Shown: piece after piece, positions 1 through 59,508 of the stretch
Layout: every line of letters begins with the position of its first letter
Numbering within the stretch: the first letter of the stretch is position 1
NCBI GenBank assembly: GCA_023134135.1
Contig: JAGLVB010000003.1
Location: 98,218-162,217 of the forward strand
DNA from: Candidatus Aenigmatarchaeota archaeon
Lineage (GTDB): Archaea > Aenigmatarchaeota > Aenigmatarchaeia > QMZS01
Direction of reading: 5' to 3'
DNA: 64,000 bases
Notes under the pieces: generated by a model
The model's database searches: none
Told to the model about the DNA's origin: nothing
Seen by the model: the letters and a program-made list of their open reading frames with translations, nothing else
Position numbers and translations under genes: made by a program

Positions 1-2
1 AA

Positions 3-170
3 TACAGGAAAAGATTGCCGTTAAAAGAAGTTTATATTAATAGAATTATCGAACTTGGAAAAAGAAAGAAGATAGCTTTGTTGTGCTATGAAAAAGACCC
101 TGAGTTCTGTCATAGAGGACAGATAGCGAATGCGGTAAGACATAAAAAATATGGGGTGGTGGATTTATGA
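3..170 (+). CDS. DUF488-family protein, C-terminal part (5' end outside window)
   Basis: Frame is open from the window edge to TGA at 168-170. Translation ...KIALLCYEKDPEFCHRGQIANAV... carries the LLC-x-E...CHR signature I associate with DUF488. Confidence 0.55.
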   Translation, partial: YRKRLPLKEVYINRIIELGKRKKIALLCYEKDPEFCHRGQIANAVRHKKYGVVDL

Positions 171-222
171 TGCAAAATGAATCTTTTTGGCTAAAGGATA
201 TGATTGTATTGGGGTGGAGTAT

Positions 223-1806
223 ATGTGGTTTAAGAGAATGAAAACAATAAGGGATATAAATGCAGAAGATGTACAGGATTTATTTGACAGCGCTATTTAT
301 CTAAAGGGCGAAGAGTATTTTGAGGATGGTTGTGTAATGTCTATAGAGTTGATTGATGCAGGCACAATAACCGGTATTGTAAGCGGCAATCAAAATTACA
401 ATGTTTCTGTTTCAATTGATGCTGATGGAGATCTTGCCTGCAACTGTTCTTGTCCGTGCGACTTTAACTGCAAACATGCCGCCGCATTGTTGCTAAAGTG
501 GCTTTCAGTTAAAAAGAAATACAATAAAAAATCTGTTAAAGCATCTCCAAAACAATCAATAAACCAGATACTCAATGAAAAAAGTAAAGAAGAATTAATT
601 GAACTTTTAGAGACATTTATCAATAAACACTCTGAGTTAAAATCCTTGGTTAAAATAGAAAGAGAAGAAATAATTTCAGAAATAAAATTATTGTTTTCAA
701 AATACTGGGAGTGGAACGAAGTAGGCGATCTTATCTCCAAGCTGGAAATCATCTTTGAAGGCATTAGAAAAAATAAAAATTCGTGGGATAAAAACTTGCT
801 GAATGACATAGAAATCAGTTCCATGATTATGATTAACAATATTGAAAATGTTGATGATGAAGGTGATTTAGGTATATTCCTTGAAGACTGGTTTGAAACT
901 TTCGGGGAAATATTTTCAAAAACAAAACCAGATATTAAAGAGAAAAAAGAATTCATACAAAAGATTCTTGATTGGATAAATAAAGATGATTATGGTTTTG
1001 ATGATAGTTATGAAAGGGCGTTACTTGGAATGTGCAATACTGAAGAGGATATAATATTAATTAAGAAGTTTATGAATCAAAAAGAGTCTGAATATTATAA
1101 TAAAGATGATAGGGCCTCTTTTTATCTTGAATTATATGATAAAATTGGCATGGATGATAAATATGTAGAAGTTGCTGAACAATCAGGATTATCTCTTGCC
1201 CTCATTGATAAATTGATTTCACTTAACAGATTAAACGAAGCATTGAAGACCTGTGAAAAAAACAACAAAAAAGAATTTTCAGAGCAAATTGAAAATAAGA
1301 AAATAGAGATATTGAAAAAGTTAGGTAAAGGGAAGGAAATTAAAGAAACCCTATCAAATCTGTTAAAGAAAACAGGCGATTTCAGTTATTTTGTAAAATT
1401 AAAACAGGAATCATCAAAAAAAGAGTGGATAAAATACTTTAAAGAAGCCGTATCTGACGCAAAAAGTAAAAAGAGATTTATTCTTCTTTCAAGGATTTAT
1501 TATCATGAAGGTGACTTCAAAAAAGCCTATGAATATTCTAAAACCCTGACTGATTTAAATTATTTAGAATTATTGGCAAAAAAACTAAGCGCTAAATATC
1601 CTGAATTAGCTTGCAATTTATTCAGGAAAATGTGTTTTGATTGGATTGATTCAGGCTCTGGATGGCCTTACAGAAAAGCCGGCAATATGCTTGAAGCCAT
1701 TAAAAAATTAGATAAAAATGGAGAATTCTTCAAAGAAACAAAGGAAGAAATAATCAGGAAACATAAGAAAAAATGGTCTCTAATGAAAATCATAGAGAAT
1801 GTTTAA
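223..1806 (+). CDS. SWIM zinc-finger domain protein with long helical C-terminal region
   Basis: Track ORF 187..1806 starts on TTG; the first in-frame ATG is at 223 (another at 238). CNCSCPCDFNCKHAAALLL fits the CxCxnCxH SWIM signature. The rest is Lys/Glu-rich and helical. Confidence 0.65.
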   Translation: MWFKRMKTIRDINAEDVQDLFDSAIYLKGEEYFEDGCVMSIELIDAGTITGIVSGNQNYNVSVSIDADGDLACNCSCPCDFNCKHAAALLLKWLSVKKKYNKKSVKASPKQSINQILNEKSKEELIELLETFINKHSELKSLVKIEREEIISEIKLLFSKYWEWNEVGDLISKLEIIFEGIRKNKNSWDKNLLNDIEISSMIMINNIENVDDEGDLGIFLEDWFETFGEIFSKTKPDIKEKKEFIQKILDWINKDDYGFDDSYERALLGMCNTEEDIILIKKFMNQKESEYYNKDDRASFYLELYDKIGMDDKYVEVAEQSGLSLALIDKLISLNRLNEALKTCEKNNKKEFSEQIENKKIEILKKLGKGKEIKETLSNLLKKTGDFSYFVKLKQESSKKEWIKYFKEAVSDAKSKKRFILLSRIYYHEGDFKKAYEYSKTLTDLNYLELLAKKLSAKYPELACNLFRKMCFDWIDSGSGWPYRKAGNMLEAIKKLDKNGEFFKETKEEIIRKHKKKWSLMKIIENV

Positions 1807-1869
1807 AGAAATGGGCAAAGGAGCAGGCAGCTTATTTAAAAACAAATAAGCATAAGTGTTTTCATATAG

Positions 1870-3213
1870 ATGAAATTAATTATTATGGATACAAAACAAT
1901 TAAATTTAGTTCTTGAAGAAGGGGAAGGGCAGTATATAGAATTCAAGGAAAGGTTAGATAAGAAATTCGCAAAAGAGATTGTTGCGTTTACAAATGCTTC
2001 AGGCGGTCAGATATTTTTAGGAATAGGTGATGGTGGCAAAATCAAAGGGGTTGACATCACAAACAACCTTAAATCTAAAATTACAGACCTCGCAAAAAAC
2101 TGCGATCCTTTTATATCTTTGGAGATTGAATCTTATAAAAACCTGCTTATAATAACTGTTCCTGAAGGAGATAATAAACCTTATCAATGTTCAGATGGTT
2201 TCTTTATGAGAATAGGTCCTAATTCACAGAAACTTGACCGCAACCAGATACTTGAACTAAGTATAAAAGAAGGTAAAATTAGGTTTGATGAGCAGATATG
2301 CGTTGATTTTGATTGGAAAGATTTTGATGATGAAAAATTTGAATATTTCCTGAGACTTGCGGGAATTTCATATAATCTTGACAGGAAATATATTTTATCT
2401 AATTTAAAATTGCTTACAGACAAAGGCATGACAAATGCGGGTATGTTGTTTTTTGCAAAAAATCCATTCAAATATATATTCACTTCCAAGATAAGGTGCG
2501 TGACTTTCAGGGATGATGATAGAGTGGATATCCTTGATAAAAAAGAGGTTGATAAAGGAATCATTGGGAATATAGAATATGCCACCAATTATCTAAAAGA
2601 GCATGTTGATGTCAGGTTTGAGATAAAAGGAATTAAACGGATTGAACACCCTGAGTATCCGCAAGAGGCATACCGTGAGGCAATAGTAAATGCAGTAATA
2701 CACAGGGATTATTCTGAAACCGGGGAGGTTGCAGTTGAAAAACTCAGAAGCGGAATAGTTATCAACAACCCGGGCGGGTTGATTAGTTCATTGCCTAAAG
2801 AAAAATTTGGAAAAATAAGCAGACCAAGAAACAGGCTTCTTGCAAATATATTATCAAAAACAATGTTTATGGAAAAAGTAGGCACTGGTATCAGGAGAAT
2901 AAGGACTGACTGCAAAGAAAATAATAATTCTGTTGAACTCAGTTTTGACCAATATAATTTTTTTGTAAGTATTGGTTCTAATAAGAAGTACCCAGAAAAG
3001 TACCCAGAAAAGTACCCAGAAAAATTGAGCGATACTCAGTTAAAAATACTCAAGTTGATAAAACAAGATAATGCTCTGACAAGAGATAAAATGGCAAAAA
3101 AGCTGAATTTAAGTGAAAGTTCGATTAAGAAGAATCTTAAATTGTTAAAACAAAAAAATATTTTATATCGTATTGGCTCTGACCGAGCAGGATATTGGAA
3201 GATAAAAGATTAA
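1870..3213 (+). CDS. AlbA_2 (Schlafen-like) + HATPase_c_4 + C-terminal wHTH protein (family often annotated RecG-like helicase / putative transcriptional regulator)
   Basis: N-terminal EGEGQYIEFKERL box, central REAIVNAVIHRDY box, and a C-terminal wHTH (LSESSIKKNLKLLKQKNILYRIGS). Contains an in-frame KYPE x3 repeat. Confidence 0.7.
   Translation: MKLIIMDTKQLNLVLEEGEGQYIEFKERLDKKFAKEIVAFTNASGGQIFLGIGDGGKIKGVDITNNLKSKITDLAKNCDPFISLEIESYKNLLIITVPEGDNKPYQCSDGFFMRIGPNSQKLDRNQILELSIKEGKIRFDEQICVDFDWKDFDDEKFEYFLRLAGISYNLDRKYILSNLKLLTDKGMTNAGMLFFAKNPFKYIFTSKIRCVTFRDDDRVDILDKKEVDKGIIGNIEYATNYLKEHVDVRFEIKGIKRIEHPEYPQEAYREAIVNAVIHRDYSETGEVAVEKLRSGIVINNPGGLISSLPKEKFGKISRPRNRLLANILSKTMFMEKVGTGIRRIRTDCKENNNSVELSFDQYNFFVSIGSNKKYPEKYPEKYPEKLSDTQLKILKLIKQDNALTRDKMAKKLNLSESSIKKNLKLLKQKNILYRIGSDRAGYWKIKD
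2988..3023 (+). repeat. Perfect 12-bp tandem repeat x3 (gtacccagaaaa), in frame (KYPE x3)
   Basis: Read directly: gtacccagaaaa gtacccagaaaa gtacccagaaaa. Confidence 0.95.
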
Positions 3214-3263
3214 TAAAACAGAAATATTGAATGATACAACCTGTAAAGAAAATAGCAGGATGA

Positions 3264-3449
3264 CTACAAAAAGAGTATATTGAGTTGGTAGAAGTCTCGC
3301 AGAAGACAGCAAAAAGAGATTTATCTGATTTAAAAGACAAGAGAATTATCTTATATATAGGGTCGGCGAAGACAGGTTATTATATATTAAATGACCTTGT
3401 AAATGACCTTGTAAATGACCTTGTAAATGACCTTGTAAAAAGTGATTGA
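3264..3449 (+). pseudogene. Start-less remnant of a wHTH C-terminus resembling the tail of the upstream AlbA_2/HATPase_c_4 gene
   Basis: Frame opens after TGA at 3261-3263, has no ATG, and ends at TGA 3447-3449. Translation: LQKEYIELVEVSQKTAKRDLSDLKDKRIILYIGSAKTGYYILNDLVNDLVNDLVNDLVKSD. Its architecture parallels ...LLKQKNILYRIGSDRAGYWKIKD of the upstream gene. Confidence 0.5.
3390..3437 (+). repeat. Perfect 12-bp tandem repeat x4 (aatgaccttgta), NDLV x4 in the remnant frame
   Basis: Read directly. The minus-strand track ORF 3346..3531 (GHLQ x4) is its antisense shadow. Confidence 0.95.
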
Positions 3450-3547
3450 AAATGGGTTGTGTTTTGTTAGGAATCTGATAAATAAAAGGTTTAATGAAAT
3501 ATAAATAATTGAAATTATGGTAGAGAAACAATTAGAGGATAATAAAT

Positions 3548-6271
3548 ATGTTTGATAAAGAAAAAGCCAAAGAACAAGTAAAAATTCTTGTTGATAAATA
3601 CAACCGAGTTGCTGAAGCAGGCAAATTAAAGAGATATAAAGAAGAAGACACTAAAGCAGAATTTATTGAACCCTTATTTGAAGCATTGGGTTGGGATGTC
3701 AGAAATATAACCCATGATGACGAAGTTACAAGAGAAGATAAAGTATCTCGTGGAAGAGTGGATTATGCGTTTAGAATAGATGGAATTCCTAAATTATTTC
3801 TGGAAGCCAAAGCTATTAAAGAAGATTTAGAGAAAATTAAATTTGCTGAACAGGCAATTAACTATGCGTGGCATAAAGGAGCGACATGGGCGGTCTTGAC
3901 TGATTTTGAAGGTGTAATGGTTTTTAATGCAGAATGGAAATCTGTTAATCCCTTGCGAGATAGGCTTTTTTACATTAAATATGATGAATTTTTAGATAAA
4001 TTTGATCAACTTCTCCTATTGTCAAGAGAAAGTTTAGAAAAAGGATTACTTGATAAAGAAGCTGAAAAATGGGGTAAAAAAGCTAAAAAAATTCCAGTGG
4101 ATAAACAACTTCTTAGTGATTTGACTAAATTTAGAGAATTGCTTACAAAAAACATTTTGAAAAATAATCCTTCACGAAATTTATCTGGTGATGAATTGGA
4201 TGAAGTAGTCCAAAGAATTTTGGACAGGTTAATATTTATCAGAACTCTTGAAGATAAACAACTGGAAGCACCTGTCTTACAGGCTTTAATTAGAGAAGAT
4301 AAACACAAACGAGTTTATAAAAAACTCAGTTTATTGTTTAGTGAAATAAATGAGATTTACAATAGCAAATTATTTGCACATCATCTTTGTCAGGAATTAG
4401 TTATAGATGATGAAGTTTTAGAGAAAATAATTCATGGTTTGTTTAAAACATGCGATAACACAGTTCATTATGATTTTGGAGTTATTGATGCTGATGTCCT
4501 TGGTAATATTTACGAACAATATTTAGGACATATTCTTAAGAAAACGGATAAAAGAGCAAAACTTGCGGATGGAAAAACACACCGAAAAGAACAAGGAATT
4601 TATTATACTCCAACTTATGTAGTAGACTATATTGTTAAAAATACTGTTGGGGAACTGGCGAAAAGTAAAAAATTTGATTTGAAGAATATTAAGATTTTAG
4701 ACCCTGCATGCGGTTCAGGTTCTTTTTTGATGAAAGCATTTGATTATCTTGTTGCGTTGGATAAAAAAAGAAACAAAAACACAGACCAGACAAAACTTGA
4801 TTTGTCTGGCACTTCTGCAACCTATGGGAGAAAAATTGAGATATTGAAAAACAATATATTTGGGGTTGACTTAGACTCAAAAGCAACAGAAATTGCCCAA
4901 CTTAATTTGTTATTGAAAGCCGCTGAAAAAAAACACAGGTTGCCAACATTGCAGGAAAATATTAAAGTTGGGAATAGTTTAATTGATGATTCTGAAATTG
5001 CAGGAAATAAGGCTTTTAAGTGGAATGAAGAATTTGGAGAAATTATGGATGATAATGGGTTTGATGTTGTGATTGGAAATCCTCCTTATGTTTTTACAAG
5101 GGATGTTGAGTTCCTTGATGCTTTTAAAGAATATATTAAAAGCAATTATTTTAAAGGATATGATACCAGTTCAAAAAGTCATGCAAAACAAGCGGGTAAA
5201 GTAAATTTATATGCAGTATTTCTAATAAAAAGTATTTTATTGTTGAAAGAAAGAGGTCTTTTTGGATTTATAATACCTAATAATTTACTCAGAACCACCA
5301 CATATGATATTATTAGAAAATTCATATTAGATAACTGTAAGATTATTCAAATAGTGGATTTAGGTAGTGGTGTTTTTGAGGGAGTTACCGCTTCAACGAT
5401 AATACTTATTTTACAAAAAGAAGGCAGTGAAACTAAGAGAAATAAAAACAAAGTTATAATATATCCGGATATCAATAATTTATCAAACAAAAAAGAAATT
5501 GAACAAAAAGATTTCTTAGAGAATACAAGTTATACATTTAACATCACACTTGGTAAAAATGAAAGGACAATATTTGGTACAATAGAAAAAAATTCAATTT
5601 CATTGGGAAAAGAGACAAAATATATTATAGAAGGTATTGTTGGAAGTCGAAAAAAAGATGTTGTCGATTCACCGATTGATGATAAATGTAAAAAATTCTT
5701 AGTAGGTAAAGATATAGGTAGATATAAACTTGATTATAAGGATAAATATATTATTTACGATAGGGACAGATTACATCGGGCAAGACCCGAAGAAGTATTT
5801 ACATCTAATAAAATAATTATTCAAAGAATAAGTGGAGGGTGCATGCCATTAAGATGCGTTTTAGATAAGAAGAAATATTATACTTTTGCATCAACCAATC
5901 TTTTACTTTTAGGAGAAAACTCTAAATTTGATTTAATTTATGTAATGGCATTATTAAATTCAAAATTAATTAATTGGTATTATGTGAATAAATTTACTAA
6001 TAAATCAACCTTGACTGTAAATATTTCTAAAACCTTTTTGGAACAAATTCCAATTAAAAATATTTCAAAATTAGAGCAGAAAATAATTATTGAATTGGCA
6101 AACAAGATGCTCTCTATTAATGAAGATTTGATTAAACTGAAGAACAAAACAACAGATGAAAAAGCCAGATTAGAAAAAGAAGCTGAAAAAGTAGATAAAG
6201 AAATAGATAGAGAAGTTTATAAGATTTATGGTCTGACCAAAGACGAGATTAAGATTATTGAGGAAAAATGA
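3548..6271 (+). CDS. Type IIG restriction-modification enzyme (N-terminal PD-(D/E)xK nuclease fused to gamma-class N6-adenine DNA methyltransferase and specificity region)
   Basis: N-terminus EEDTKAEFIEPLFEALGWDV...GRVDYAF...LEAKA resembles an HsdR-N/Mrr-like nuclease core. DPACGSGSFL is SAM motif I and VIGNPPYV is motif IV. Long C-terminal TRD-like region; 907 aa in one polypeptide. Confidence 0.8.
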   Translation: MFDKEKAKEQVKILVDKYNRVAEAGKLKRYKEEDTKAEFIEPLFEALGWDVRNITHDDEVTREDKVSRGRVDYAFRIDGIPKLFLEAKAIKEDLEKIKFAEQAINYAWHKGATWAVLTDFEGVMVFNAEWKSVNPLRDRLFYIKYDEFLDKFDQLLLLSRESLEKGLLDKEAEKWGKKAKKIPVDKQLLSDLTKFRELLTKNILKNNPSRNLSGDELDEVVQRILDRLIFIRTLEDKQLEAPVLQALIREDKHKRVYKKLSLLFSEINEIYNSKLFAHHLCQELVIDDEVLEKIIHGLFKTCDNTVHYDFGVIDADVLGNIYEQYLGHILKKTDKRAKLADGKTHRKEQGIYYTPTYVVDYIVKNTVGELAKSKKFDLKNIKILDPACGSGSFLMKAFDYLVALDKKRNKNTDQTKLDLSGTSATYGRKIEILKNNIFGVDLDSKATEIAQLNLLLKAAEKKHRLPTLQENIKVGNSLIDDSEIAGNKAFKWNEEFGEIMDDNGFDVVIGNPPYVFTRDVEFLDAFKEYIKSNYFKGYDTSSKSHAKQAGKVNLYAVFLIKSILLLKERGLFGFIIPNNLLRTTTYDIIRKFILDNCKIIQIVDLGSGVFEGVTASTIILILQKEGSETKRNKNKVIIYPDINNLSNKKEIEQKDFLENTSYTFNITLGKNERTIFGTIEKNSISLGKETKYIIEGIVGSRKKDVVDSPIDDKCKKFLVGKDIGRYKLDYKDKYIIYDRDRLHRARPEEVFTSNKIIIQRISGGCMPLRCVLDKKKYYTFASTNLLLLGENSKFDLIYVMALLNSKLINWYYVNKFTNKSTLTVNISKTFLEQIPIKNISKLEQKIIIELANKMLSINEDLIKLKNKTTDEKARLEKEAEKVDKEIDREVYKIYGLTKDEIKIIEEK

Positions 6272-6363
6272 AATCGTTAAATTTAATTCGGGTAATTTGA
6301 CACAAAAGGATATAGAAGAATTTGAATAAGATCATTATATATAGATATAAAGGAGATTAATTA

Positions 6364-6630
6364 ATGAGATATCAAATAATATGTACTACGAGAAAAGAAA
6401 ATGATTCAATTGACAAATTAGGTTTTATTGAAGAAGGGAAATCTGAGGGTAAACCTACCCATATTGAGACTAAAGAAGCAATAAACCAAAGAATAAGATC
6501 GGGTGATAGTTTCTTTTTTACAGACGAAGCTGGAAAAGAAACTGAGGTAATTGCAGTCGAAGATGATTATGTTAAAACAAGTCCAGATAGTACAACGAAG
6601 AATAATTTGTTACATTTGAAAAAATGTTGA
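6364..6630 (+). CDS. DUF3892-like small protein
   Basis: 88 aa. The pattern ...INQRIRSGDSFFF...VKTSPDSTTKNNLLHL resembles the DUF3892 consensus as I recall it. Confidence 0.5.
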   Translation: MRYQIICTTRKENDSIDKLGFIEEGKSEGKPTHIETKEAINQRIRSGDSFFFTDEAGKETEVIAVEDDYVKTSPDSTTKNNLLHLKKC

Positions 6631-7118
6631 ATTTAGATTTTTTGTTTTTTAAATATTAATTAATATTCTTAACTGTATTACTTAAACTTTTTAATTGATT
6701 TGCTTTATTAGAAACTTCTGTAAGGTTTTAGCTGATTTGGCAGTAATTTTTAATAAATTGCAATTTTCTTCATTTAAACTTTTGCAAGATTCATCCACAA
6801 GTTGATTAATTTAATTGATATACCCCGGAGCAATAGTCTGAACGGTGTGTTTCTGTGTTTTATTAGTTCTTTGAGTTCCATTTAAATAGTTGGTTGAATT
6901 TTTAGGTAACTGGAATATTAGACCTGAGACTTGTTTTCAATTAATACCCTTTCTCAGAATGCAAAAAACTCTCAAAAATAGTGTTTGTTATATTAAAGAA
7001 AAAGGATTTAATTAGTGGTTTAATATCAGGCACATTGTTTATAAAGAATAAATCTTATTATTACGCTTTTCTGGGATATATTATTTAATAGAGGGAATAG
7101 TTATGTAGGTTATTTAAC

Positions 7119-7589
7119 ATGATTAAAAAAAGAGATTTTGAAAATTGGAGTAAAACTGAGTTGGTTAAAGAGATTAAAAAATCAGAGAAAAGAAAAAACC
7201 TATGGTGCTCTGTGAATAAACCTGAAAAAGAGTTTATGAACAAATATTTTGAACTTTGGCGAGATGAGAGAGGTTATACAATTTCGAGGTTAGGATTAAT
7301 ACTCAATAGTAATTCGATCCTGTTTTTAGGATATGTACTGATTAAGAATACTTGGTTGGGTGCTTATGTTGCTATTATTGGAATTGTAGCCAATATATTT
7401 TATTTTCTATTTTTTTGGGGGTTTGCAAAAAGAATGAAATATCTACAAAATAAAATTAAATCTCAAGAAGTTGGTGAATTTGCAAAGATATCAGTTAAAG
7501 GACGATGGGGATTCGTTCCGATGGTTATTATATTTGAATTAATATGGATTGGTTCGGTATTTTATACATTCTCAGGGGGTTTTATTTAA
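7119..7589 (+). CDS. Hypothetical membrane protein
   Basis: Three hydrophobic segments (ILFLGYVLI, AYVAIIGIVANIFYFLFFWGF, FVPMVIIFELIWIGSVFYTF). No family recognised. Confidence 0.5.
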   Translation: MIKKRDFENWSKTELVKEIKKSEKRKNLWCSVNKPEKEFMNKYFELWRDERGYTISRLGLILNSNSILFLGYVLIKNTWLGAYVAIIGIVANIFYFLFFWGFAKRMKYLQNKIKSQEVGEFAKISVKGRWGFVPMVIIFELIWIGSVFYTFSGGFI

Positions 7590-7624
7590 TGAATTAATAA
7601 AGCTATTATTTAAATACTCTAAAC

Positions 7625-7690
7625 TCACCTCAACAACAATTTAATTTCAACTAGTTTGTATTTCCATTTCTCAAGAATTTGTTGAGTTTT
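7625..7690 (-). pseudogene. Diverged duplicate of the 3' end of rps15 (last ~16 codons plus stop)
   Basis: The minus strand reads ...LEKWKYKLVEIKLLLR*. The intact rps15 ends PEKWKYKPAEVELLLR* at 10129. By my hand count about 41 of 52 nt are identical, including a 15-nt identical run tcacctcaacaacaa. Confidence 0.75.
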
Positions 7691-7774
7691 ATTTTAATAA
7701 TTGATTAGGTAAGTGGTTTTGTAGAAGTGCGTTAGGAGTATATCTTTTAAATCGTGCTTTTCCATATTGCTAAA

Positions 7775-8629
7775 TTAAACAGATAATGGATTATTCCCGT
7801 GGATTAATTTTTTACTGAAAAATAAAATTTCTTTTCCTTTTCTTGCCCTGTATGCTGAATGATTAAAAGAATATTTTTTCTTTCTTTTTATTGGAACCCA
7901 TTTATAAATATTTTCTATTTCTGGTGTGTTATCGTAAGAAACAATCCAATAAATGTTTTTTATTTTTTTTATTGCACTGGCCACTTCTTTGTGTTGATTA
8001 TCTTTATAGTGATTCATGTATAAAGTGGAACCCTTTAAATAATAAGGTGGATCAAAATAGAAAATAGTTTGTTTGTTATTTGATTCTTTTTGTATTTTTT
8101 TAACTAATTCCAAAGCATCAAGATTATAAAGGTTGATTTGTTTTTTATGTTTGGCTATTGCTTTAATTCTTCTTATTAGTTCTTTTTTATTAAAACGGCA
8201 ATCTATTTTATATTTTCCATTTTGCTTTAAGCCACCAATTACACCTGCATTTATAATTCCAGAAATGTTTGTTCTATTCAGGAAAAAAGTTGAAAACCCT
8301 AAATCTAAGAGTTCTGCATTTTTTTTATCTTTTTGGATATTTTTTGCTTTTTGCCAGTTTTCAATATTTATTTCGGTGCTTTTAATTAAATCACAAAGTT
8401 TTTTTGTATTTTTTAAAACAGAATGCCAAAAAGCAAAAACAGAACAATCATAATCGTTTATTGTAATTTTTTTAACTTTTTTTTCTAACAATAAATGTAA
8501 AGCTACTGAGGCACCTCCTGCATATGGTTCAACATAATGACTATTAATATTATTATCTAAACATATTTTTGCAATAAATTTTGATAATTTATTTTTTCCA
8601 CCAGGATATCTTAAAGGTGAATAGAACAT
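7775..8629 (-). CDS. dam: D12-class (Dam-like) N6-adenine DNA methyltransferase
   Basis: SPLRYPGGKNKL near the N-terminus, EPYAGGAS (SAM loop) and FYFDPPYY (motif IV). Confidence 0.85.
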   Translation of the reverse strand: MFYSPLRYPGGKNKLSKFIAKICLDNNINSHYVEPYAGGASVALHLLLEKKVKKITINDYDCSVFAFWHSVLKNTKKLCDLIKSTEINIENWQKAKNIQKDKKNAELLDLGFSTFFLNRTNISGIINAGVIGGLKQNGKYKIDCRFNKKELIRRIKAIAKHKKQINLYNLDALELVKKIQKESNNKQTIFYFDPPYYLKGSTLYMNHYKDNQHKEVASAIKKIKNIYWIVSYDNTPEIENIYKWVPIKRKKKYSFNHSAYRARKGKEILFFSKKLIHGNNPLSV

Positions 8630-8632
8630 AAT

Positions 8633-10033
8633 TTACTTTTTATATTGTAAAGAAGTCCATAGAATTTCAAAAAATTCTTCTAAATTGTCCCACTTTGCCT
8701 TTAATTCGCTGGAAGTTGGTTGAGTGGTGTGAGAATGTACATATTCATGGAAATTATCTATAGATAAATAACTTTGTTCTTTTGTAGATGAACCAACTTT
8801 CTTTATATTATTAAACAATTTTTTATCATAACCTTTTTCTATAAAATTGTTGACCACCCAAGTTATCTTTTTGCGTATGGTATCATTTGTTTTAAAATCC
8901 TGCCCTTTCATTTTTGCATAATAATCAAGAGAAATTTCCAAAAATACTCTAAATAAAACACCCACTGCATTTGGAACTGCTTTATTTGTATCATCAAGCA
9001 ATAAATCTTCCCTAAGTTCACGATAGATATTATTAATTTTCTTTTCATCAATGGAAATACGGAAAGTCCTTGGAATAAGATAATTTCTTGAGGTACTTTT
9101 AGGATTTATTTTAGTTTTCTTTTTTGACGGAATTACATCAACAATCGGTTCATCAAGGAGATTAATTGTTGTATTTTTTTTAATTTCAGAATCTACTTTA
9201 TTATAATCATCAGTTGTAATTGATTTTAAATATTCTTCCTTCTCTTCGTTTTTATTTAAAGAACGGGAATCAATTTTGTTTCCAGAAAAATCTTTTTTCT
9301 GTAAAACATTCAAAATTATAACTTTCAATTTCTTCTCGAATTCATTATCTTTAATTTCCAATTCTCCATTATCTCTTAAATTAAATCCAAATTTTTTCCA
9401 AGCAACAGAATTATCCAAGATACGCCAAAAAGTTGTCACATATCCGAGCCCTAATATTTGTTCTTTTAAGGTTTCAGGAAGATCTAGTTTTTTTATAATT
9501 TTTGCAATTGCAATTTTAAATTCCTCTTTTTTAGTCGCATTCCCTCTACGAATATTATAATTAGTTCGTTCTTGTTCCCCCCAACTTACTTCATTATTTC
9601 CATTTACATGTTTTCTCTCAATAAAACGAAATCCTTCTGCTTTACTATCTGTTACGAGGCAATCAAAAGAAAAACTATTATCGATACTTATATCTTGCTT
9701 TAACTTTAAAAATTTGCTTTTTAAAGTATCATTTGGTGCTAAATCAGGATTCTTTAATAATTTATAAACGGTTAAACGACGGTTTCCCTCCAACACTATA
9801 TTTTTTTCGCCAGTAGCATAAACAAGCAATTTCTCCAAATGTGGTAAATCAAAATCCTTAACAATCTCTTTTGCAAAAGATTCAATTTTAAAGTTTTTCT
9901 TCGTACAAAAATATTTAATTAATTCTTTCTCAGATTTACTGAAATATTTATCGGGAAAACGAGCATTTTCATCCCATAAGGATAACTGTTCTAAAGATAT
10001 TCTTGATTCTTGCCAATGATTATTTTGTGCCAT
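8633..10033 (-). CDS. ParB/Srx-fold N-terminal domain protein with uncharacterised C-terminal region
   Basis: ISLEQLSLWDENARF ... IVLEGNRRLTVYKLL matches the ParB N-terminal (ParBc) pattern with the GxRR box. The remaining ~330 aa were not recognised. A 3-nt gap separates it from the Dam gene. Confidence 0.55.
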   Translation of the reverse strand: MAQNNHWQESRISLEQLSLWDENARFPDKYFSKSEKELIKYFCTKKNFKIESFAKEIVKDFDLPHLEKLLVYATGEKNIVLEGNRRLTVYKLLKNPDLAPNDTLKSKFLKLKQDISIDNSFSFDCLVTDSKAEGFRFIERKHVNGNNEVSWGEQERTNYNIRRGNATKKEEFKIAIAKIIKKLDLPETLKEQILGLGYVTTFWRILDNSVAWKKFGFNLRDNGELEIKDNEFEKKLKVIILNVLQKKDFSGNKIDSRSLNKNEEKEEYLKSITTDDYNKVDSEIKKNTTINLLDEPIVDVIPSKKKTKINPKSTSRNYLIPRTFRISIDEKKINNIYRELREDLLLDDTNKAVPNAVGVLFRVFLEISLDYYAKMKGQDFKTNDTIRKKITWVVNNFIEKGYDKKLFNNIKKVGSSTKEQSYLSIDNFHEYVHSHTTQPTSSELKAKWDNLEEFFEILWTSLQYKK

Positions 10034-10128
10034 AGCTACATTATCGTTTAAAATCTTATATTTGCGTTATTATATTCTTTTTAGTAATTAAATAGAAAGA
10101 AAAACAAGGTTTTATCAAAAAACCAACA

Positions 10129-10584
10129 TCACCTCAACAACAACTCAACCTCAGCAGGCTTGTATTTCCACTTCTCAGGCAACAAATGCTCTTTCATGTA
10201 GTATTTTCCAAGTCTCCTGATTTTGGATTCTGTTAACTGCAATGACCTTTTGTTGTGATTATCTTTTTTATTATCAACCAGATGTTTTCTCAAGTGTATT
10301 GCTTTTTTAAACAAATTCATCAAATCCTCAGGATAATCCTCTTTAATATCATTTTCCTCAAGAATTGTCTGCAATTTCTTTCCTGTTGACAATTTAATTG
10401 AAGGCACTCCATAACTATCCCTTAAAATTAGCCCAATTTCAGGCTTTTTATGATCATCTTTCCTCAACTCAATAACTTTGGCAATAATCTCCTTTTTGCC
10501 CATTTCCTGCCATTCAGGGACCTTGTTTCTGACAACTTTGTCTGAACCGCTTTTCCCTTTTCTTCTAGCATACATTCGCGCCAT
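10129..10584 (-). CDS. rps15: 30S ribosomal protein uS15 (archaeal S15 / eukaryotic S13 type)
   Basis: MARMYARRKGKSGS... N-terminus and ...RRLGKYY...KWKYKP... C-terminus. The likely start is the ATG at 10584, not the track start at 10620. Confidence 0.9.
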   Translation of the reverse strand: MARMYARRKGKSGSDKVVRNKVPEWQEMGKKEIIAKVIELRKDDHKKPEIGLILRDSYGVPSIKLSTGKKLQTILEENDIKEDYPEDLMNLFKKAIHLRKHLVDNKKDNHNKRSLQLTESKIRRLGKYYMKEHLLPEKWKYKPAEVELLLR

Positions 10585-10646
10585 AAGAATACATAAAAAT
10601 AAATAATATTGAATACTCACTCTAAAAGATAGTTTCTTAGAATATT

Positions 10647-12902
10647 ATGCAATTTAAAAAGGAAGATTATCCAATTAAAACCCTTGAAAGCATAGGATTC
10701 ACGAGAAGTAAGTGCAAAGTGTGCGGAAAACACTTCTGGAGCAAGAATACAAGGGATTACTGCGATGATGATGAATGCAGGGTGAAATTAAACCTCCCGG
10801 CTTACGATTTTATAGGAAAACCCGTGGGAAAGAAGAAAACTTACTTAGAATGCTGGAAAACCTTCACAGAGACCTTTGAGAAGTTCAAACACACTGTAAT
10901 AGGAAGATATCCGATAATAGCGAGGTGGAGAGACGATGTTTTCTTTGTTGAGGCATCAATATATGATTTCCAGCCTTATTGCGTTTCAGGAGAGGTTGAA
11001 CCCCCGGCAAATCCATTATTAGTCCCCCAGTTTTGCTTAAGATTCAATGACCTTGAAAATGTTGGGGTAACAGGCAGGCATTATTCCGGGTTTATAATGG
11101 TTGGTCAGCATGTATTTAACAGACCAAATGATTTCATCTATTTCAAGGAAGAAGGATTATCTTACATTTACAATCTATTAACCGAAGGTTTTGGAATCCC
11201 GGATGAAGAAATTTACTTCCACGAAGATTCATGGGAAGGGGGAGGAAACGCAGGACCGTGCATAGAATTTTTTGTGAGAGGACTGGAACTTGGGAATCAG
11301 GTTTACATGCAGTACAAAAAAATCGGAGACAAACTTGTTGAACTTGAAACAAAAGTTATTGATATGGGGGCTGGACTTGAAAGATTCCCGTGGTTATTGA
11401 ACGGAACAGACACAAGTTATGAAATGGTTTTCCCCGAAGCATTAAAATTTCTTGAAAAGTTCAACATAACCAATGAAGAAAAAATAATACTTGCGGACCA
11501 CACAAGAACTTTATTGATTGCTCTGTCAGACAATGCATTGCCATCAAATGTTTCAGGCGGATACAACCTCAGGAAAGTTCTAAGGAGATGTTTTTCAATA
11601 ATAAGAAAAAACAATTTGGATTTAAATCTTGTTGAACTCATGAAAATTCATTCAACTGAATTTAAGATTTACCCTGAACTCAGGAAAGTAAACTTTGATT
11701 TTGTTGAGGATATTTTAAAGGAAGAGGAGAGAAAATACAAGGAAACAATAAAAGCCGCGATAAGAACAATAAAGAAAACAGAAAATTTTGATGAAGAAAC
11801 AATGAGGACTTTGTACCAATCCCAGGGAATAACCCCTGAGATAATCAAAGAAGTCAAACCTGAAATAAAAATTCCAGATAACTTTGAAGTTTCAAAAAAA
11901 CCAAAAAAGAAAGAACAAAAAAAAGTATTTGATGTTGATGGTCTGGAGGAAACAGAGAAATTATATTATGAAGGAAAAACCAGATGCTCAGCCAGGGTAT
12001 TAAAAGTAATTGATGCTGTAAAAAAAGAAAACCCAACACAAAAAGAATCTGATAAACCCGTAATTTTAGAAACTGATAAAACCAAAGAAAATGCAAATGT
12101 GGTTAGTGAAGAATATTTAAGAAATATCGCAAAGTCCTTAAATTACAACTGGATTATTTTGGACAAAACCGTGTTCTACCCAAAGAGCGGGGGACAGGAT
12201 TTTGATTTAGGTGTTATTGGGGAGTGCGAGGTATTGGAGGTTATCAAGCAGGGAAATATAATCCTGCATCTGGTTAAAGGAAAATTTAAATATGATGATG
12301 CTGTGGAACTTGTTGTGGATGAGGCTAGAAGAAAACAATTGGTTCAACACCACACCTCAGCCCATATCATCAACGGGGCTGCGAGAAAAGTTTTGGGAGA
12401 ACATGTGCAGCAGGCAGGGGCCGAAAAGAAGATTGACAAAGCCCATTTGGATATGTTTCATTTCAAAAAAATTTCTGATGAGGAACTCGCAAAGATTGAG
12501 GAACTCGCAAACACCTGTATTAAGGAAAACCATGAAGTTTCCGTCAACTGGTTAAACCGAACTGAGGCAGAGCAGAAATACGGTTTTGAGATTTATCAGG
12601 GGGGAGCAGTCCCGGGAAAGGAAATAAGGATTGTAAATATAAAAGACTGGGATGTAGAGGCTTGCGGTGGATTGCATTTAAACAACACAGGAGAAGCAGA
12701 TATAATTGTAATAACCGGAATAAAAAAATTACAGGATTCTGTTGTAAGAATTGAATTCCTTGCGGGAAAAGTCGCAAGAGATTACCTTGAAAAAATGGAA
12801 GAATTTTCAAAACAATGCGCGGAAATTCTTGATTGCGATGGAGAACAGGTTTTTGACAGGGCGAAAGAATTGTTTGAAGAATGGAAGAGAAAAAGAAAAT
12901 AA
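10647..12902 (+). CDS. alaS: Alanyl-tRNA synthetase (archaeal type, short C-terminus)
   Basis: N-terminal Zn-ribbon-like CKVCGKHFWS...CDDDEC. Editing-domain motifs HHTSAHIINGA and WDVEACGGLHL. At 751 aa the protein ends soon after the editing domain. Confidence 0.85.
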   Translation: MQFKKEDYPIKTLESIGFTRSKCKVCGKHFWSKNTRDYCDDDECRVKLNLPAYDFIGKPVGKKKTYLECWKTFTETFEKFKHTVIGRYPIIARWRDDVFFVEASIYDFQPYCVSGEVEPPANPLLVPQFCLRFNDLENVGVTGRHYSGFIMVGQHVFNRPNDFIYFKEEGLSYIYNLLTEGFGIPDEEIYFHEDSWEGGGNAGPCIEFFVRGLELGNQVYMQYKKIGDKLVELETKVIDMGAGLERFPWLLNGTDTSYEMVFPEALKFLEKFNITNEEKIILADHTRTLLIALSDNALPSNVSGGYNLRKVLRRCFSIIRKNNLDLNLVELMKIHSTEFKIYPELRKVNFDFVEDILKEEERKYKETIKAAIRTIKKTENFDEETMRTLYQSQGITPEIIKEVKPEIKIPDNFEVSKKPKKKEQKKVFDVDGLEETEKLYYEGKTRCSARVLKVIDAVKKENPTQKESDKPVILETDKTKENANVVSEEYLRNIAKSLNYNWIILDKTVFYPKSGGQDFDLGVIGECEVLEVIKQGNIILHLVKGKFKYDDAVELVVDEARRKQLVQHHTSAHIINGAARKVLGEHVQQAGAEKKIDKAHLDMFHFKKISDEELAKIEELANTCIKENHEVSVNWLNRTEAEQKYGFEIYQGGAVPGKEIRIVNIKDWDVEACGGLHLNNTGEADIIVITGIKKLQDSVVRIEFLAGKVARDYLEKMEEFSKQCAEILDCDGEQVFDRAKELFEEWKRKRK

Positions 12903-12911
12903 TTAAATCCC

Positions 12912-13568
12912 TCACCAATGATATTTCTTCAACTCTTTCTCAAGTTCCCGATAATTAGGAAGTATTTTTTCAACCCCAAGTTTAAAATCTTTTGAATGAT
13001 TGAAATGTTTTAGATGAACCAATTCATGAGCCACAACATAATCAATAAGCGGGATTGGAAGACAGATTAATTTGGAATTAAAGAAAATCCTTCCATCTCT
13101 TTTACAGTGCCCAAAGCTTCTTAGGTTTTTTATTGAAACTGATTTTGGATACAATCCAAAAATACTGGAAAATTCTTCGGCTTTGACCGAGACATATTCA
13201 AGGGTTTCATCTGCGAGAAATTCAAGCAGAATATTCTCGGTTTTTCTTTTCCCAAATTTATATATTTCAATTGAATTATCAAATATTTTTATGCCTGAAT
13301 TTTTATCCCTTACTATATTCACACCATATTTTTCTCCTTTGTAATAAACCGAATCCTCTTCAAAAAGTTTCACTGATTTCCCAAGTTCCCCAACTTTTCT
13401 TTTAAGCCAGTTTTGCTTCTCTTTCAAAATAGTTTCTGCAGATACACTGTTATTCTCGGGCAGGGTAATCTCAAGGCAGTAATTTGGGTTTAATTTAAGG
13501 TATGCGTGTCGGGTTTTTTTATATTTTATTTTGCAGTTTACCTCTTTATTTCCTATTTTCAGGAGCAT
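12912..13568 (-). CDS. DUF45/YgjP-like (M48-related) zinc metallohydrolase
   Basis: C-terminal HELVHLKHFNHSKDF contains an HExxH motif in the usual DUF45 context. Confidence 0.65.
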   Translation of the reverse strand: MLLKIGNKEVNCKIKYKKTRHAYLKLNPNYCLEITLPENNSVSAETILKEKQNWLKRKVGELGKSVKLFEEDSVYYKGEKYGVNIVRDKNSGIKIFDNSIEIYKFGKRKTENILLEFLADETLEYVSVKAEEFSSIFGLYPKSVSIKNLRSFGHCKRDGRIFFNSKLICLPIPLIDYVVAHELVHLKHFNHSKDFKLGVEKILPNYRELEKELKKYHW

Positions 13569-58437: not shown

Positions 58438-59508
58438 TTATTTACCAATTATTATAACTTCTCGATATCCTTTTCCATTATTTCTATTAAGTTTATATGA
58501 ATATGGTATGGATTTTGTTATCACTGTTTTTTTGTATTTTTTCATTAATTTGACAATTGTTTGTATAGTTGGCTTTCCTTTATTTCCGTAAGATACAACT
58601 ATTGTGGAATCGGAGAATTTACGAAAAAGATTATCAAAATTACTTATTAAATTACAATCCCATGTATTTTTTTTGAAAATGAATGGTTTATTTACTCTTG
58701 AATTATCAATATTATGTTCCCATGTATTGTAATTCATAATACCTTCTAAAAAATGATACATCTCTGCATAGTTTTGAGGATGACAAGAATCTTTCCTACA
58801 ATAAGGCGGATCAAAATATACTAGATCAAATTTATCATTGATATTGAATATGTCTGTATTAAGTACCATATTGTTTTTTCCATTGTCAAAAACAAACTTT
58901 GAATATTCTTTATTGAATTTAATAAAATGATCCTTGAATGGTTTATCCCATGTTTTTTTATTGCCAAAACTTCTCTTAACATTGCTCGTTCTAAGATTCA
59001 AATTTTTTCTATGAAATAGATTAAATGGTCTTTTTGAAAGACAAGATTGAAACAAATTGTGATATGCTAACGCTTTTTTGTATCTTAGTGTTTTACCGTT
59101 ATATAACAAAGACAAATCTTCAATATTTTTTATCATTTTATCTAATAAGATATTTTCTTCATCAAGAAAATAAATACCATTATACATTTTACTTATTAGT
59201 TTTGGATATGATTCTGTTTTTCTTTCATTAAAAATAAATTCGATGTCTTTCACATTAAGTTTTACATTTTTATTCTCAATTAAAGCTATTCCCGTCTGAC
59301 TATTTGATTTAAGTATATCATTAAATGAGACTTCTTTACCCATACTTTTAAAAAGAAAACCAATACTACCTGAACCCCCAAAAGCATCTAAAACAGTTTC
59401 AAATTCAAGAGTTACAAGGATATTTTTTAACCAAGACACCATTCTTCTTTTGCTTCCTTGATATCTTGTTGAAGGAGCATCAAATCTTTCATTATCTTTT
59501 TTCTTCAT
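58438..59508 (-). CDS. D12-class N6-adenine DNA methyltransferase
   Basis: STRYQGSKRR, LDAFGGSGS (SAM loop) and VYFDPPYC (motif IV); 356 aa. Confidence 0.8.
   Translation of the reverse strand: MKKKDNERFDAPSTRYQGSKRRMVSWLKNILVTLEFETVLDAFGGSGSIGFLFKSMGKEVSFNDILKSNSQTGIALIENKNVKLNVKDIEFIFNERKTESYPKLISKMYNGIYFLDEENILLDKMIKNIEDLSLLYNGKTLRYKKALAYHNLFQSCLSKRPFNLFHRKNLNLRTSNVKRSFGNKKTWDKPFKDHFIKFNKEYSKFVFDNGKNNMVLNTDIFNINDKFDLVYFDPPYCRKDSCHPQNYAEMYHFLEGIMNYNTWEHNIDNSRVNKPFIFKKNTWDCNLISNFDNLFRKFSDSTIVVSYGNKGKPTIQTIVKLMKKYKKTVITKSIPYSYKLNRNNGKGYREVIIIGK

Follow-up and report, generated by a model that had tools for sequence, protein, structure and literature searches.

The last codons of the ribosomal protein gene rps15 occur twice in a 64,000-nucleotide (nt) stretch of the genome of a Candidatus Aenigmatarchaeota archaeon (contig JAGLVB010000003.1, positions 98,218 to 162,217), which is called the window here. 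Between the intact gene end and its degenerate second copy lies a two-gene operon that matches the defense system PD-lambda-5. We believe that this repeat is probably the scar of an insertion with long target duplication directly behind the rps15 stop codon, a position that appears to be a hot spot; from the sequence comparisons described below, we put the probability of this explanation at roughly 0.55.

The repeat at the rps15 3' end

The features that define the repeat and its gene-side flank are the following.

10129..10584, minus strand: rps15 (archaeal uS15, 151 amino acids [aa]); Pfam Ribosomal_S13_N 1e-20, Ribosomal_S15 2.4e-15; stop codon at 10129-10131
10129..10180, minus strand: gene-proximal repeat copy, the apparently functional last 16 codons plus stop of rps15
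10117..10128, minus strand: rps15 trailer, 12 nt, TGTTGGTTTTTT in gene orientation, common to some relatives before divergence
7625..7676, minus strand: far copy, apparently a decayed, noncoding rps15 3'-end fragment (41/52 identity)
10647..12902, plus strand: alaS (alanyl-tRNA synthetase), divergent from rps15, a conserved core flank; Pfam tRNA-synt_2c 8e-79

A preliminary description of this DNA had reported that the last 52 nt of rps15 recur at 7625-7676 with 41 of 52 bases and a 15-nt block identical, and our recount agrees. Both copies of this direct repeat (7625-7676 and 10129-10180) lie in the same orientation on the minus strand, and the identical 15-nt block (TCACCTCAACAACAA on the plus strand) corresponds to the last four rps15 codons plus the stop. 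Elsewhere in the window (both strands, 128 kb), the best match to the rps15 end reaches 28/52, and the comparison with shuffled AT-rich sequence that had been proposed as a check gave a maximum of 32/52 among 500 dinucleotide-preserving shuffles of the query (mean, 28.1; standard deviation, 1.0). The 19 nt past the stop that the repeat finder had appended to the repeat match at background level. The far copy has kept both frame and stop, its translation reading ...ILEKWKYKLVEIKLLLR versus ...PEKWKYKPAEVELLLR for rps15; it is nevertheless a gene fragment, since a start codon is absent and an in-frame stop lies 22 codons upstream. Both repeat junctions are real and no assembly artifact, because a single unitig of 30,375 nt from the source run (X1) covers the DNA from 6880 to past 13000 and crosses both of them with zero mismatches.

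By homology, the true start of rps15 is the ATG at 10584 (homologues begin with MARMYARRKG); the open reading frame (ORF) list extends the gene to a GTG at 10620. The protein is 92% identical to P0002, a member of the same 90% cluster, and its nearest named homologues are from Aenigmarchaeota. The host, a low-GC archaeon, is Aenigmarchaeota-like. Over the stretch of alaS plus rps15, the window shares 88% nucleotide identity with L001, the contig of the closest relative.

The two copies differ markedly in their relation to other genomes. The gene-proximal 52 nt are one or two synonymous bases off the same stretch in L001, L008, and L027 and encode the same peptide as in the relatives. The far copy carries 11 changes, of which 10 are from GC to AT and none from AT to GC, and through them it has lost two prolines that almost every inspected homologue retains. 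Judged from one or two changes on the proximal side against 11 AT-biased ones on the other, the far copy would have drifted without selection, and the functional end would be the orthologous one. The sequence does not support one part of the preliminary description, which held that the element had supplied a replacement 3' end and that the displaced original sits at the far border. The far copy is, by all appearances, a decayed relic and not a displaced functional end, and no gene replacement would be needed.

The bracketed cargo

The insert between the copies spans 2,452 nt (7677-10128) and holds two real genes, which are co-oriented and separated by a 3-nt gap.

8633..10033, minus strand: PD-lambda-5 gene A, 466 aa; PADLOC PD-Lambda-5_A 5.2e-73, full length
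7775..8629, minus strand: PD-lambda-5 gene B, Dam-type (D12 class) N6-adenine DNA methyltransferase, 284 aa; PADLOC PD-Lambda-5_B 2.9e-117, Pfam MethyltransfD12 1.7e-20, TIGR00571 1.5e-17

Together they are predicted to form a complete PD-lambda-5 defense system, which is a better name than the Dam plus ParB-fold module of the preliminary description. The Dam-type methyltransferase of that claim stands. Protein A has no match in Pfam, NCBIfam, or the PDB sequences. In an alignment of 32 homologues, its N-terminal domain shows an invariant EGNRR motif, and its AlphaFold model (mean predicted local distance difference test score, 79.8) retrieved ParB, Noc, KorB, and sulfiredoxin as top Foldseek matches, with a probability of at most 0.97 and an E value of 0.03 or worse. 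Motif and model lend weak support to a ParB/Srx fold for this domain. Protein A is presumed to be the effector, and its nuclease activity is assumed.

The operon is foreign to the host chromosome, because its GC content is low (25 to 28%, compared with 36 to 37% in rps15 and alaS), its homologues are mostly bacterial, and its DNA identity to other loci is limited to the operon itself. The 593 homologues of protein A (55 to 77% identity), where named, come mostly from the candidate phyla radiation and other bacteria, and the operon DNA is 76 to 82% identical to operons on unrelated contigs solely between 10063 and about 7800. Likewise, the A-B pair recurs on other contigs (L022 to L025) in quite different neighborhoods. 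A three-gene variant of PD-lambda-5 is found on L019 (479-4326; also on L020 and L021), in which a gene for a 519-aa AAA_15/AAA_21 ATPase lies between gene A and the methyltransferase gene.

PD-lambda-5 was obtained by functional selection in Escherichia coli, where it protects against 9 of the 10 phages tested, and was described as a compact system resembling restriction-modification (RM) plus abortive infection with broad protection (Vassallo et al. 2022, PMC9519451). Both proteins of the window are full-length PADLOC matches to this system, and their order and tight spacing are as in other loci. The difference lies in the host, which is archaeal here, whereas phage protection was shown just for the E. 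coli system. By analogy with E. coli, the cassette presumably protects the cell by methylating adenines in the cell's DNA and attacking the unmethylated DNA of invaders. The finding places a bacterial-type defense system in an archaeal chromosome.

The rps15 stop codon in relatives

Close relatives were taken as the 90%-identity cluster of rps15, which has nine members, and all of their contigs keep the alaS-rps15 pair. Beyond this pair, the contigs diverge at base 1 or base 13 past the rps15 stop, with at least five unrelated continuations, including that of the window.

Continuation 1, the window: PD-lambda-5
Continuation 2, L008, L009, L010, L013 to L015, L017, and L018: a 620-nt spacer, an NMT1-type ABC transporter, and an SdpI-like gene
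Continuation 3, L011: 398 nt of other DNA (10457-10854) in place of 4,069 nt (L008 10457-14525), after which L008 and L011 rejoin
Continuation 4, L027 2-1487: the C-terminal tail of a Type IIG/Type I-S-like protein (PADLOC 1e-7) and a 223-aa gene of no family, both convergent with rps15
Continuation 5, L001 = L016: a HAD hydrolase, a xylose-isomerase-like (CbiR-like) TIM-barrel protein, and a 381-aa protein

L001 and L016 were counted as one lineage, being 100% identical across 6,585 nt. L008 and L011 encode the same rps15 protein and differ by a clean substitution, which begins with the base directly behind the stop codon and is not flanked by a repeat. At the position of the trailer, L011 has GGTTGGTTTT and L001 has GGTTAGTACTTTTTT. 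The independently assembled contigs L012, L030, and L031 end exactly at the rps15 TGA, as do unitigs of 96 to 98% identical relatives in the runs X2 and X3; assembly graphs behave in this way where strains diverge. A contig that ends at the last base of the rps15 stop is in this respect a practical signature of a strain-variable junction. Among more distant Aenigmarchaeota, L004 has a DEAD-box helicase gene directly behind rps15 and L002 has about 6.3 kb more, and none of L002 to L007 (rps15 73 to 75% identical) carries a duplicate of the rps15 end.

A second duplicate is present in L001, where 115 to 118 nt at 5135-5249 (5132-5249) are 96.5% identical to the contig's own rps15 end (2325-2442). 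The equivalents in L016 are 6814-6931 and 9621-9738, and the fragment has been called as a 40-aa gene there. This pair brackets a different cargo of 2.7 kb, with the HAD hydrolase, the TIM-barrel protein, and the 381-aa gene. The last of these was considered as a hidden recombinase and rejected, as it matches no family in Pfam, PHROGs, NCBIfam, PADLOC, or the PDB sequences. The two copies in the window and the two in L001 have the stop codon as their common end point, and unrelated sequence follows each of them. By sequence comparison, the rps15 end has thus been duplicated at least twice, around different cargo and over different lengths with the same outer boundary, and foreign genes appear to have landed repeatedly at the rps15 stop in this lineage. 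The earlier claim of an insertion footprint at the 3' end of rps15 is supported, and a relative has a duplicate of this gene end around another cargo. A pattern search of Joint Genome Institute metagenomes and GTDB genomes for the rps15 end returned only four loci, all of them already in the set or from the same clade.

Other relatives bear on the timing of these events. For those in X2 and X3, whose identity in rps15 and alaS is 96 to 98%, no PD-lambda-5 was seen at a corresponding depth, and a 164-nt contig of X2 tracks the window to 10117 and then diverges. A 1,007-nt contig of X2, another cold-seep sample, carries a partial rps15 end of 49 nt with one TTG codon fewer (equivalent to 10129-10177 of the window). 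On its inner side, where 30-nt contig ends are what is visible, it matches the first 30 nt of a 78-nt element of the window island (6909-6832, see below), and it also weakly resembles window positions 7681-7705 (20/25 nt, p ~0.03). Its outer side resembles the sequence behind the true rps15 in X3 (30-nt ends). From these sequences, X2 and X3 may be an occupied/empty pair.

How the insertion may have occurred

Probably, the DNA that enters the slot behind rps15 brings no recombinase with it. It would most likely come in by a single (Campbell-type) crossover between the chromosomal rps15 end and a circularized fragment from another strain that carries a piece of the rps15 end plus the adjoining cargo. 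The duplicated stretch would then run from the break point of the fragment to the place where homology between the strains stops, which would be the stop codon or the short trailer. The outer copy, freed from selection, would decay toward AT, and later events may stack or swap cassettes via recombination in rps15 and in the distal flank. The bracket would in this way mark the slot and may be older than PD-lambda-5. A single crossover would explain why the inner boundary is variable (the fragment break), why the outer boundary is constant (the end of homology), and why an integrase is absent. Likewise, repeat lengths of 52 versus 115 to 118 nt with a common outer boundary are as single-crossover entry predicts.

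Several observations weigh against this explanation. All variants diverge within 0 to 12 nt of one point, which a dedicated recombinase would explain too. At 79% identity, a 52-nt stretch is too diverged for homologous recombination today, and the model for this reason needs later decay. All 11 changes of the far copy are confined to its first 37 nt, and the final 15 nt are untouched (Fisher p 0.02 over all sites and 0.05 over G/C sites). Uniform decay would account for this marginally nonrandom pattern less well than would a site-specific reaction, with the 15 nt as its identical core. An empty site, in which rps15 is joined directly to the sequence from 7624 leftward, was found in none of the relatives, as each single rps15 end has other DNA after it. 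The assembled contigs of the source run likewise hold no excised or empty form, the region being one unbranched unitig. That the distal neighbor led to no empty site follows from this neighbor, a gene of 156 aa, being an orphan ORF (ORFan).

The main alternative, in which we place clearly less confidence, is that a tyrosine or serine recombinase integrated the DNA site-specifically, its gene lying elsewhere in the genome or having since disappeared from the element. The last rps15 codons (core TTGTTGTTGAGGTGA, perhaps with the GGTTGGTTTT trailer) would then constitute attB, the cassettes would bring an attP that imitates the rps15 end, and the far copy, instead of being a decayed duplicate, would consist of the core and an arm that the element itself contributed. 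Such a reaction would better explain the untouched block, in that the outermost 15 nt of the repeat match perfectly while its remainder is 70% identical. The same holds for the very abrupt divergence, which occurs at the same place in every lineage, with several assemblies breaking exactly at the TGA. It would also be in keeping with the far copy in X2, which has nearly the same inner boundary (49 versus 52 nt) and the weakly similar adjoining stretch mentioned above, and elements that integrate into the 3' end of a protein gene and leave a pseudo-end behind are a classical case, as with e14 and phage 21 in icd.

The search for mobility genes argues against such a reaction. Recombinase or transposase families were found in none of 13 island genes of the window and L001/L016 (the window scan covered 187-13568), nor was a recombinase found in the visible parts of three other site variants or in ten further window ORFs of suitable size. 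The description of the cargo as devoid of an integrase holds, as the genes between the repeat copies belong to no recombinase family. Moreover, the two duplicates differ more than twofold in length, and the changes in the far copy are nearly all from GC to AT and destroy conserved residues, as expected for a decaying host gene end. Structured attachment sites are likewise lacking: there is no hairpin or inverted repeat at the repeats, and the repeat regions and the 78-nt element, taken as single-stranded DNA, fold no better than shuffles. A covariance model, R1, built from attC-like sites at 55 to 63 kb of the window, detected five sites there and one in L002, and none in window positions 1-13000, L001, L008, L011, L016, or L027.

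A bolder and rather doubtful possibility is that the rps15 end (TTGTTGTTGAGGTGA plus the GGTTGGTTTT trailer) serves as a dedicated landing pad. It would belong to an undescribed pathway of cassette insertion in DPANN (Diapherotrites, Parvarchaeota, Aenigmarchaeota, Nanoarchaeota, and Nanohaloarchaeota) archaea that operates without a recombinase of the cassette's own, maybe through a trans-acting Xer-like enzyme, and rebuilds the gene end by copying 50 to 120 nt of the host target. If true, this would be the main way in which these gene-dense genomes take up defense and metabolic genes.

We think it unlikely that the bracket stems from an older, unrelated insertion and that PD-lambda-5 later replaced another cassette between rps15 and the far copy already present, in which case the repeat would say nothing on how PD-lambda-5 moves. 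The far copy is 21% diverged, yet the X2 and X3 relatives show no PD-lambda-5, the partial rps15 end of X2 has a similar boundary and lies beside different DNA, and the replacement of 4,069 nt by 398 nt between L008 and L011 involved no repeats. However, the X2 contig is read as 30-nt loose ends, and the depths of 6.5 versus 10.5 suggest a mixture of strains; in addition, this scenario is compatible with insertion with long target duplication and not exclusive of it. 

The preliminary description held that relatives without the Dam/ParB genes that keep both repeat copies would speak against an insertion, and this is partly touched by the 98% identical relative in X2, which seems to be without PD-lambda-5 but keeps part of an rps15 end whose inner boundary is almost that in the window. 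For this reason, the bracket may be older than the present cargo. The sequences agree with a slot in which cassettes are exchanged by recombination and the bracket can persist after its cargo is gone, and the repeat-free substitution between L008 and L011 shows a cassette swap directly.

Chance similarity in AT-rich DNA, for which the composition of the region (27% GC) and the background-level match past the stop might speak, and an assembly chimera can both be dismissed in view of the 41/52 identity (against 32 in shuffles and 28 in the window), the conserved frame and stop, the error-free unitig, and the same arrangement in a relative.

Relation to known systems

Nobusato et al. reportedly described, in 2000, the insertion of RM gene units with long target duplication. 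A survey of such events lists RM units inserted with target duplications of >30 bp and no mobility genes, some of them overlapping the 3' ends of genes; it holds no archaeal case, and the published repeats are 93 to 100% identical (Furuta, Abe and Kobayashi 2010, PMC2853133). The window resembles these cases in several ways. Its insert is a small (<20 kb; here 2,452 nt), low-GC, RM-like unit that consists of a modification gene and a partner, the effector role of protein A being presumed, and it lacks a transposase or integrase. Its direct repeat is longer than 30 bp (52 nt), copies the local target, which is the rps15 end, and overlaps the 3' end of a gene as in the Haemophilus influenzae cases. 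It differs from them in its DPANN archaeal host, in the age of the repeat, which appears old and decayed (79% identity), in the repeated use of the site by unrelated cargo, and in that no genome with an empty site was found.

Prophage e14 and phage 21 integrate into icd of E. coli, where they leave the icdC pseudo-end; these elements carry their own integrase and supply a new gene end. As in icd, the gene in the window is intact, a partial copy of its 3' end sits at the far border, and the block of identity stops at the gene end. In contrast to icd, no integrase was found here and the functional end appears to be the orthologous one. Integron-type arrays (attC sites, including clusters of attC sites lacking integrases [CALINs]) share with this locus the gathering of small, promoter-bearing cassettes at one place with no recombinase nearby, whereas no attC-like site lies at the cassette borders here.

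The type of scar is already known from bacteria, and the cargo is a known defense system. What the present case adds is an archaeal host, a ribosomal protein gene as the anchor, and recurrence, in the form of a second independent duplicate and five alternative occupants. In an uncultivated DPANN archaeon, it maps a recurrent point of entry for foreign genes precisely to the nucleotide that follows the stop codon of an essential ribosomal protein gene, and its two independent duplications without a recombinase gene would be an archaeal example of the poorly understood long target duplication. The rps15-alaS pair could serve as a conserved anchor to follow the strain-level turnover of cassettes in Aenigmarchaeota metagenomes.

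The rest of the island

The preliminary description had placed more of the island beyond the bracketed module, and this is confirmed, as the DNA of L001 rejoins that of the window only at 3471-3260. The variable region on the rps15 side is thus 3472-10128 and has at least two segments, of which the first is PD-lambda-5 up to the far copy and the other comprises the features beyond it.

7119..7589, plus strand: ORFan, 156 aa, convergent with the far copy, the next island segment
6832..6909, no strand assigned: 78-nt element, present twice in the source genome, which looks like the duplicated end of a small gene
6364-6630: DUF3892 gene, after the Type IIG enzyme
3548..6271, plus strand: single-chain Type IIG restriction-modification enzyme, distal island cargo; Pfam Eco57I 6.6e-38, N6_Mtase, TaqI_C, MmeI_Mtase; PADLOC REase_MTase_IIG 7.6e-128
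3260..3471, no strand assigned: relic of the 3' end of an AlbA_2/HATPase_c_4/wHTH gene, the first DNA that is common again with L001 (94% identity)

The ORFan matches no family in Pfam, NCBIfam, PADLOC, or PHROGs, and a database search with it returned only itself. No tRNA and no Rfam RNA was found in the island.

The 78-nt element has no second copy within the window. The unitig over 6847-6909 has a depth of 53.8, compared with 27 around it, and a second contig shows different flanks at a depth of 28. The other copy, which lies outside the window, is preceded by ATGAAGGGGATAATTATTAAAAACAGTAAT and would be the end of a 27-codon ORF plus a 24-nt trailer. From its sequence, the window copy looks like another duplicated gene end within the island. 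Unitigs of the source sample break at 6876-6880.

At the distal border, L001 6085-6259 matches window 3471-3260, and the L001 gene at 6101-6583, which carries HATPase_c_4 and a helix-turn-helix (HTH) domain, has an intact end. The relic in the window lies 46 nt past the stop of the window's own, unrelated AlbA_2/HTH gene (1870-3213). It contains a 12-nt unit, TAAATGACCTTG, that is repeated 4.3 times in the window (3388-3439) and occurs once in L001.

Entry of the cassettes by an integron-type mechanism was considered and rejected, as no attC-like site lies near rps15 in the window or in its close relatives; the GC-rich stretch at which L008 and L011 rejoin is unrelated to such sites. In L002, about 6.3 kb of additional DNA separates rps15 from the DEAD-box helicase gene, and the single attC-like site of this contig (16646-16711; R1, 73 bits) is located at the outer end of that DNA. 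A second gene for a D12-class adenine methyltransferase lies at 58438-59508 of the window (Pfam 1.1e-12), within the attC-like array.

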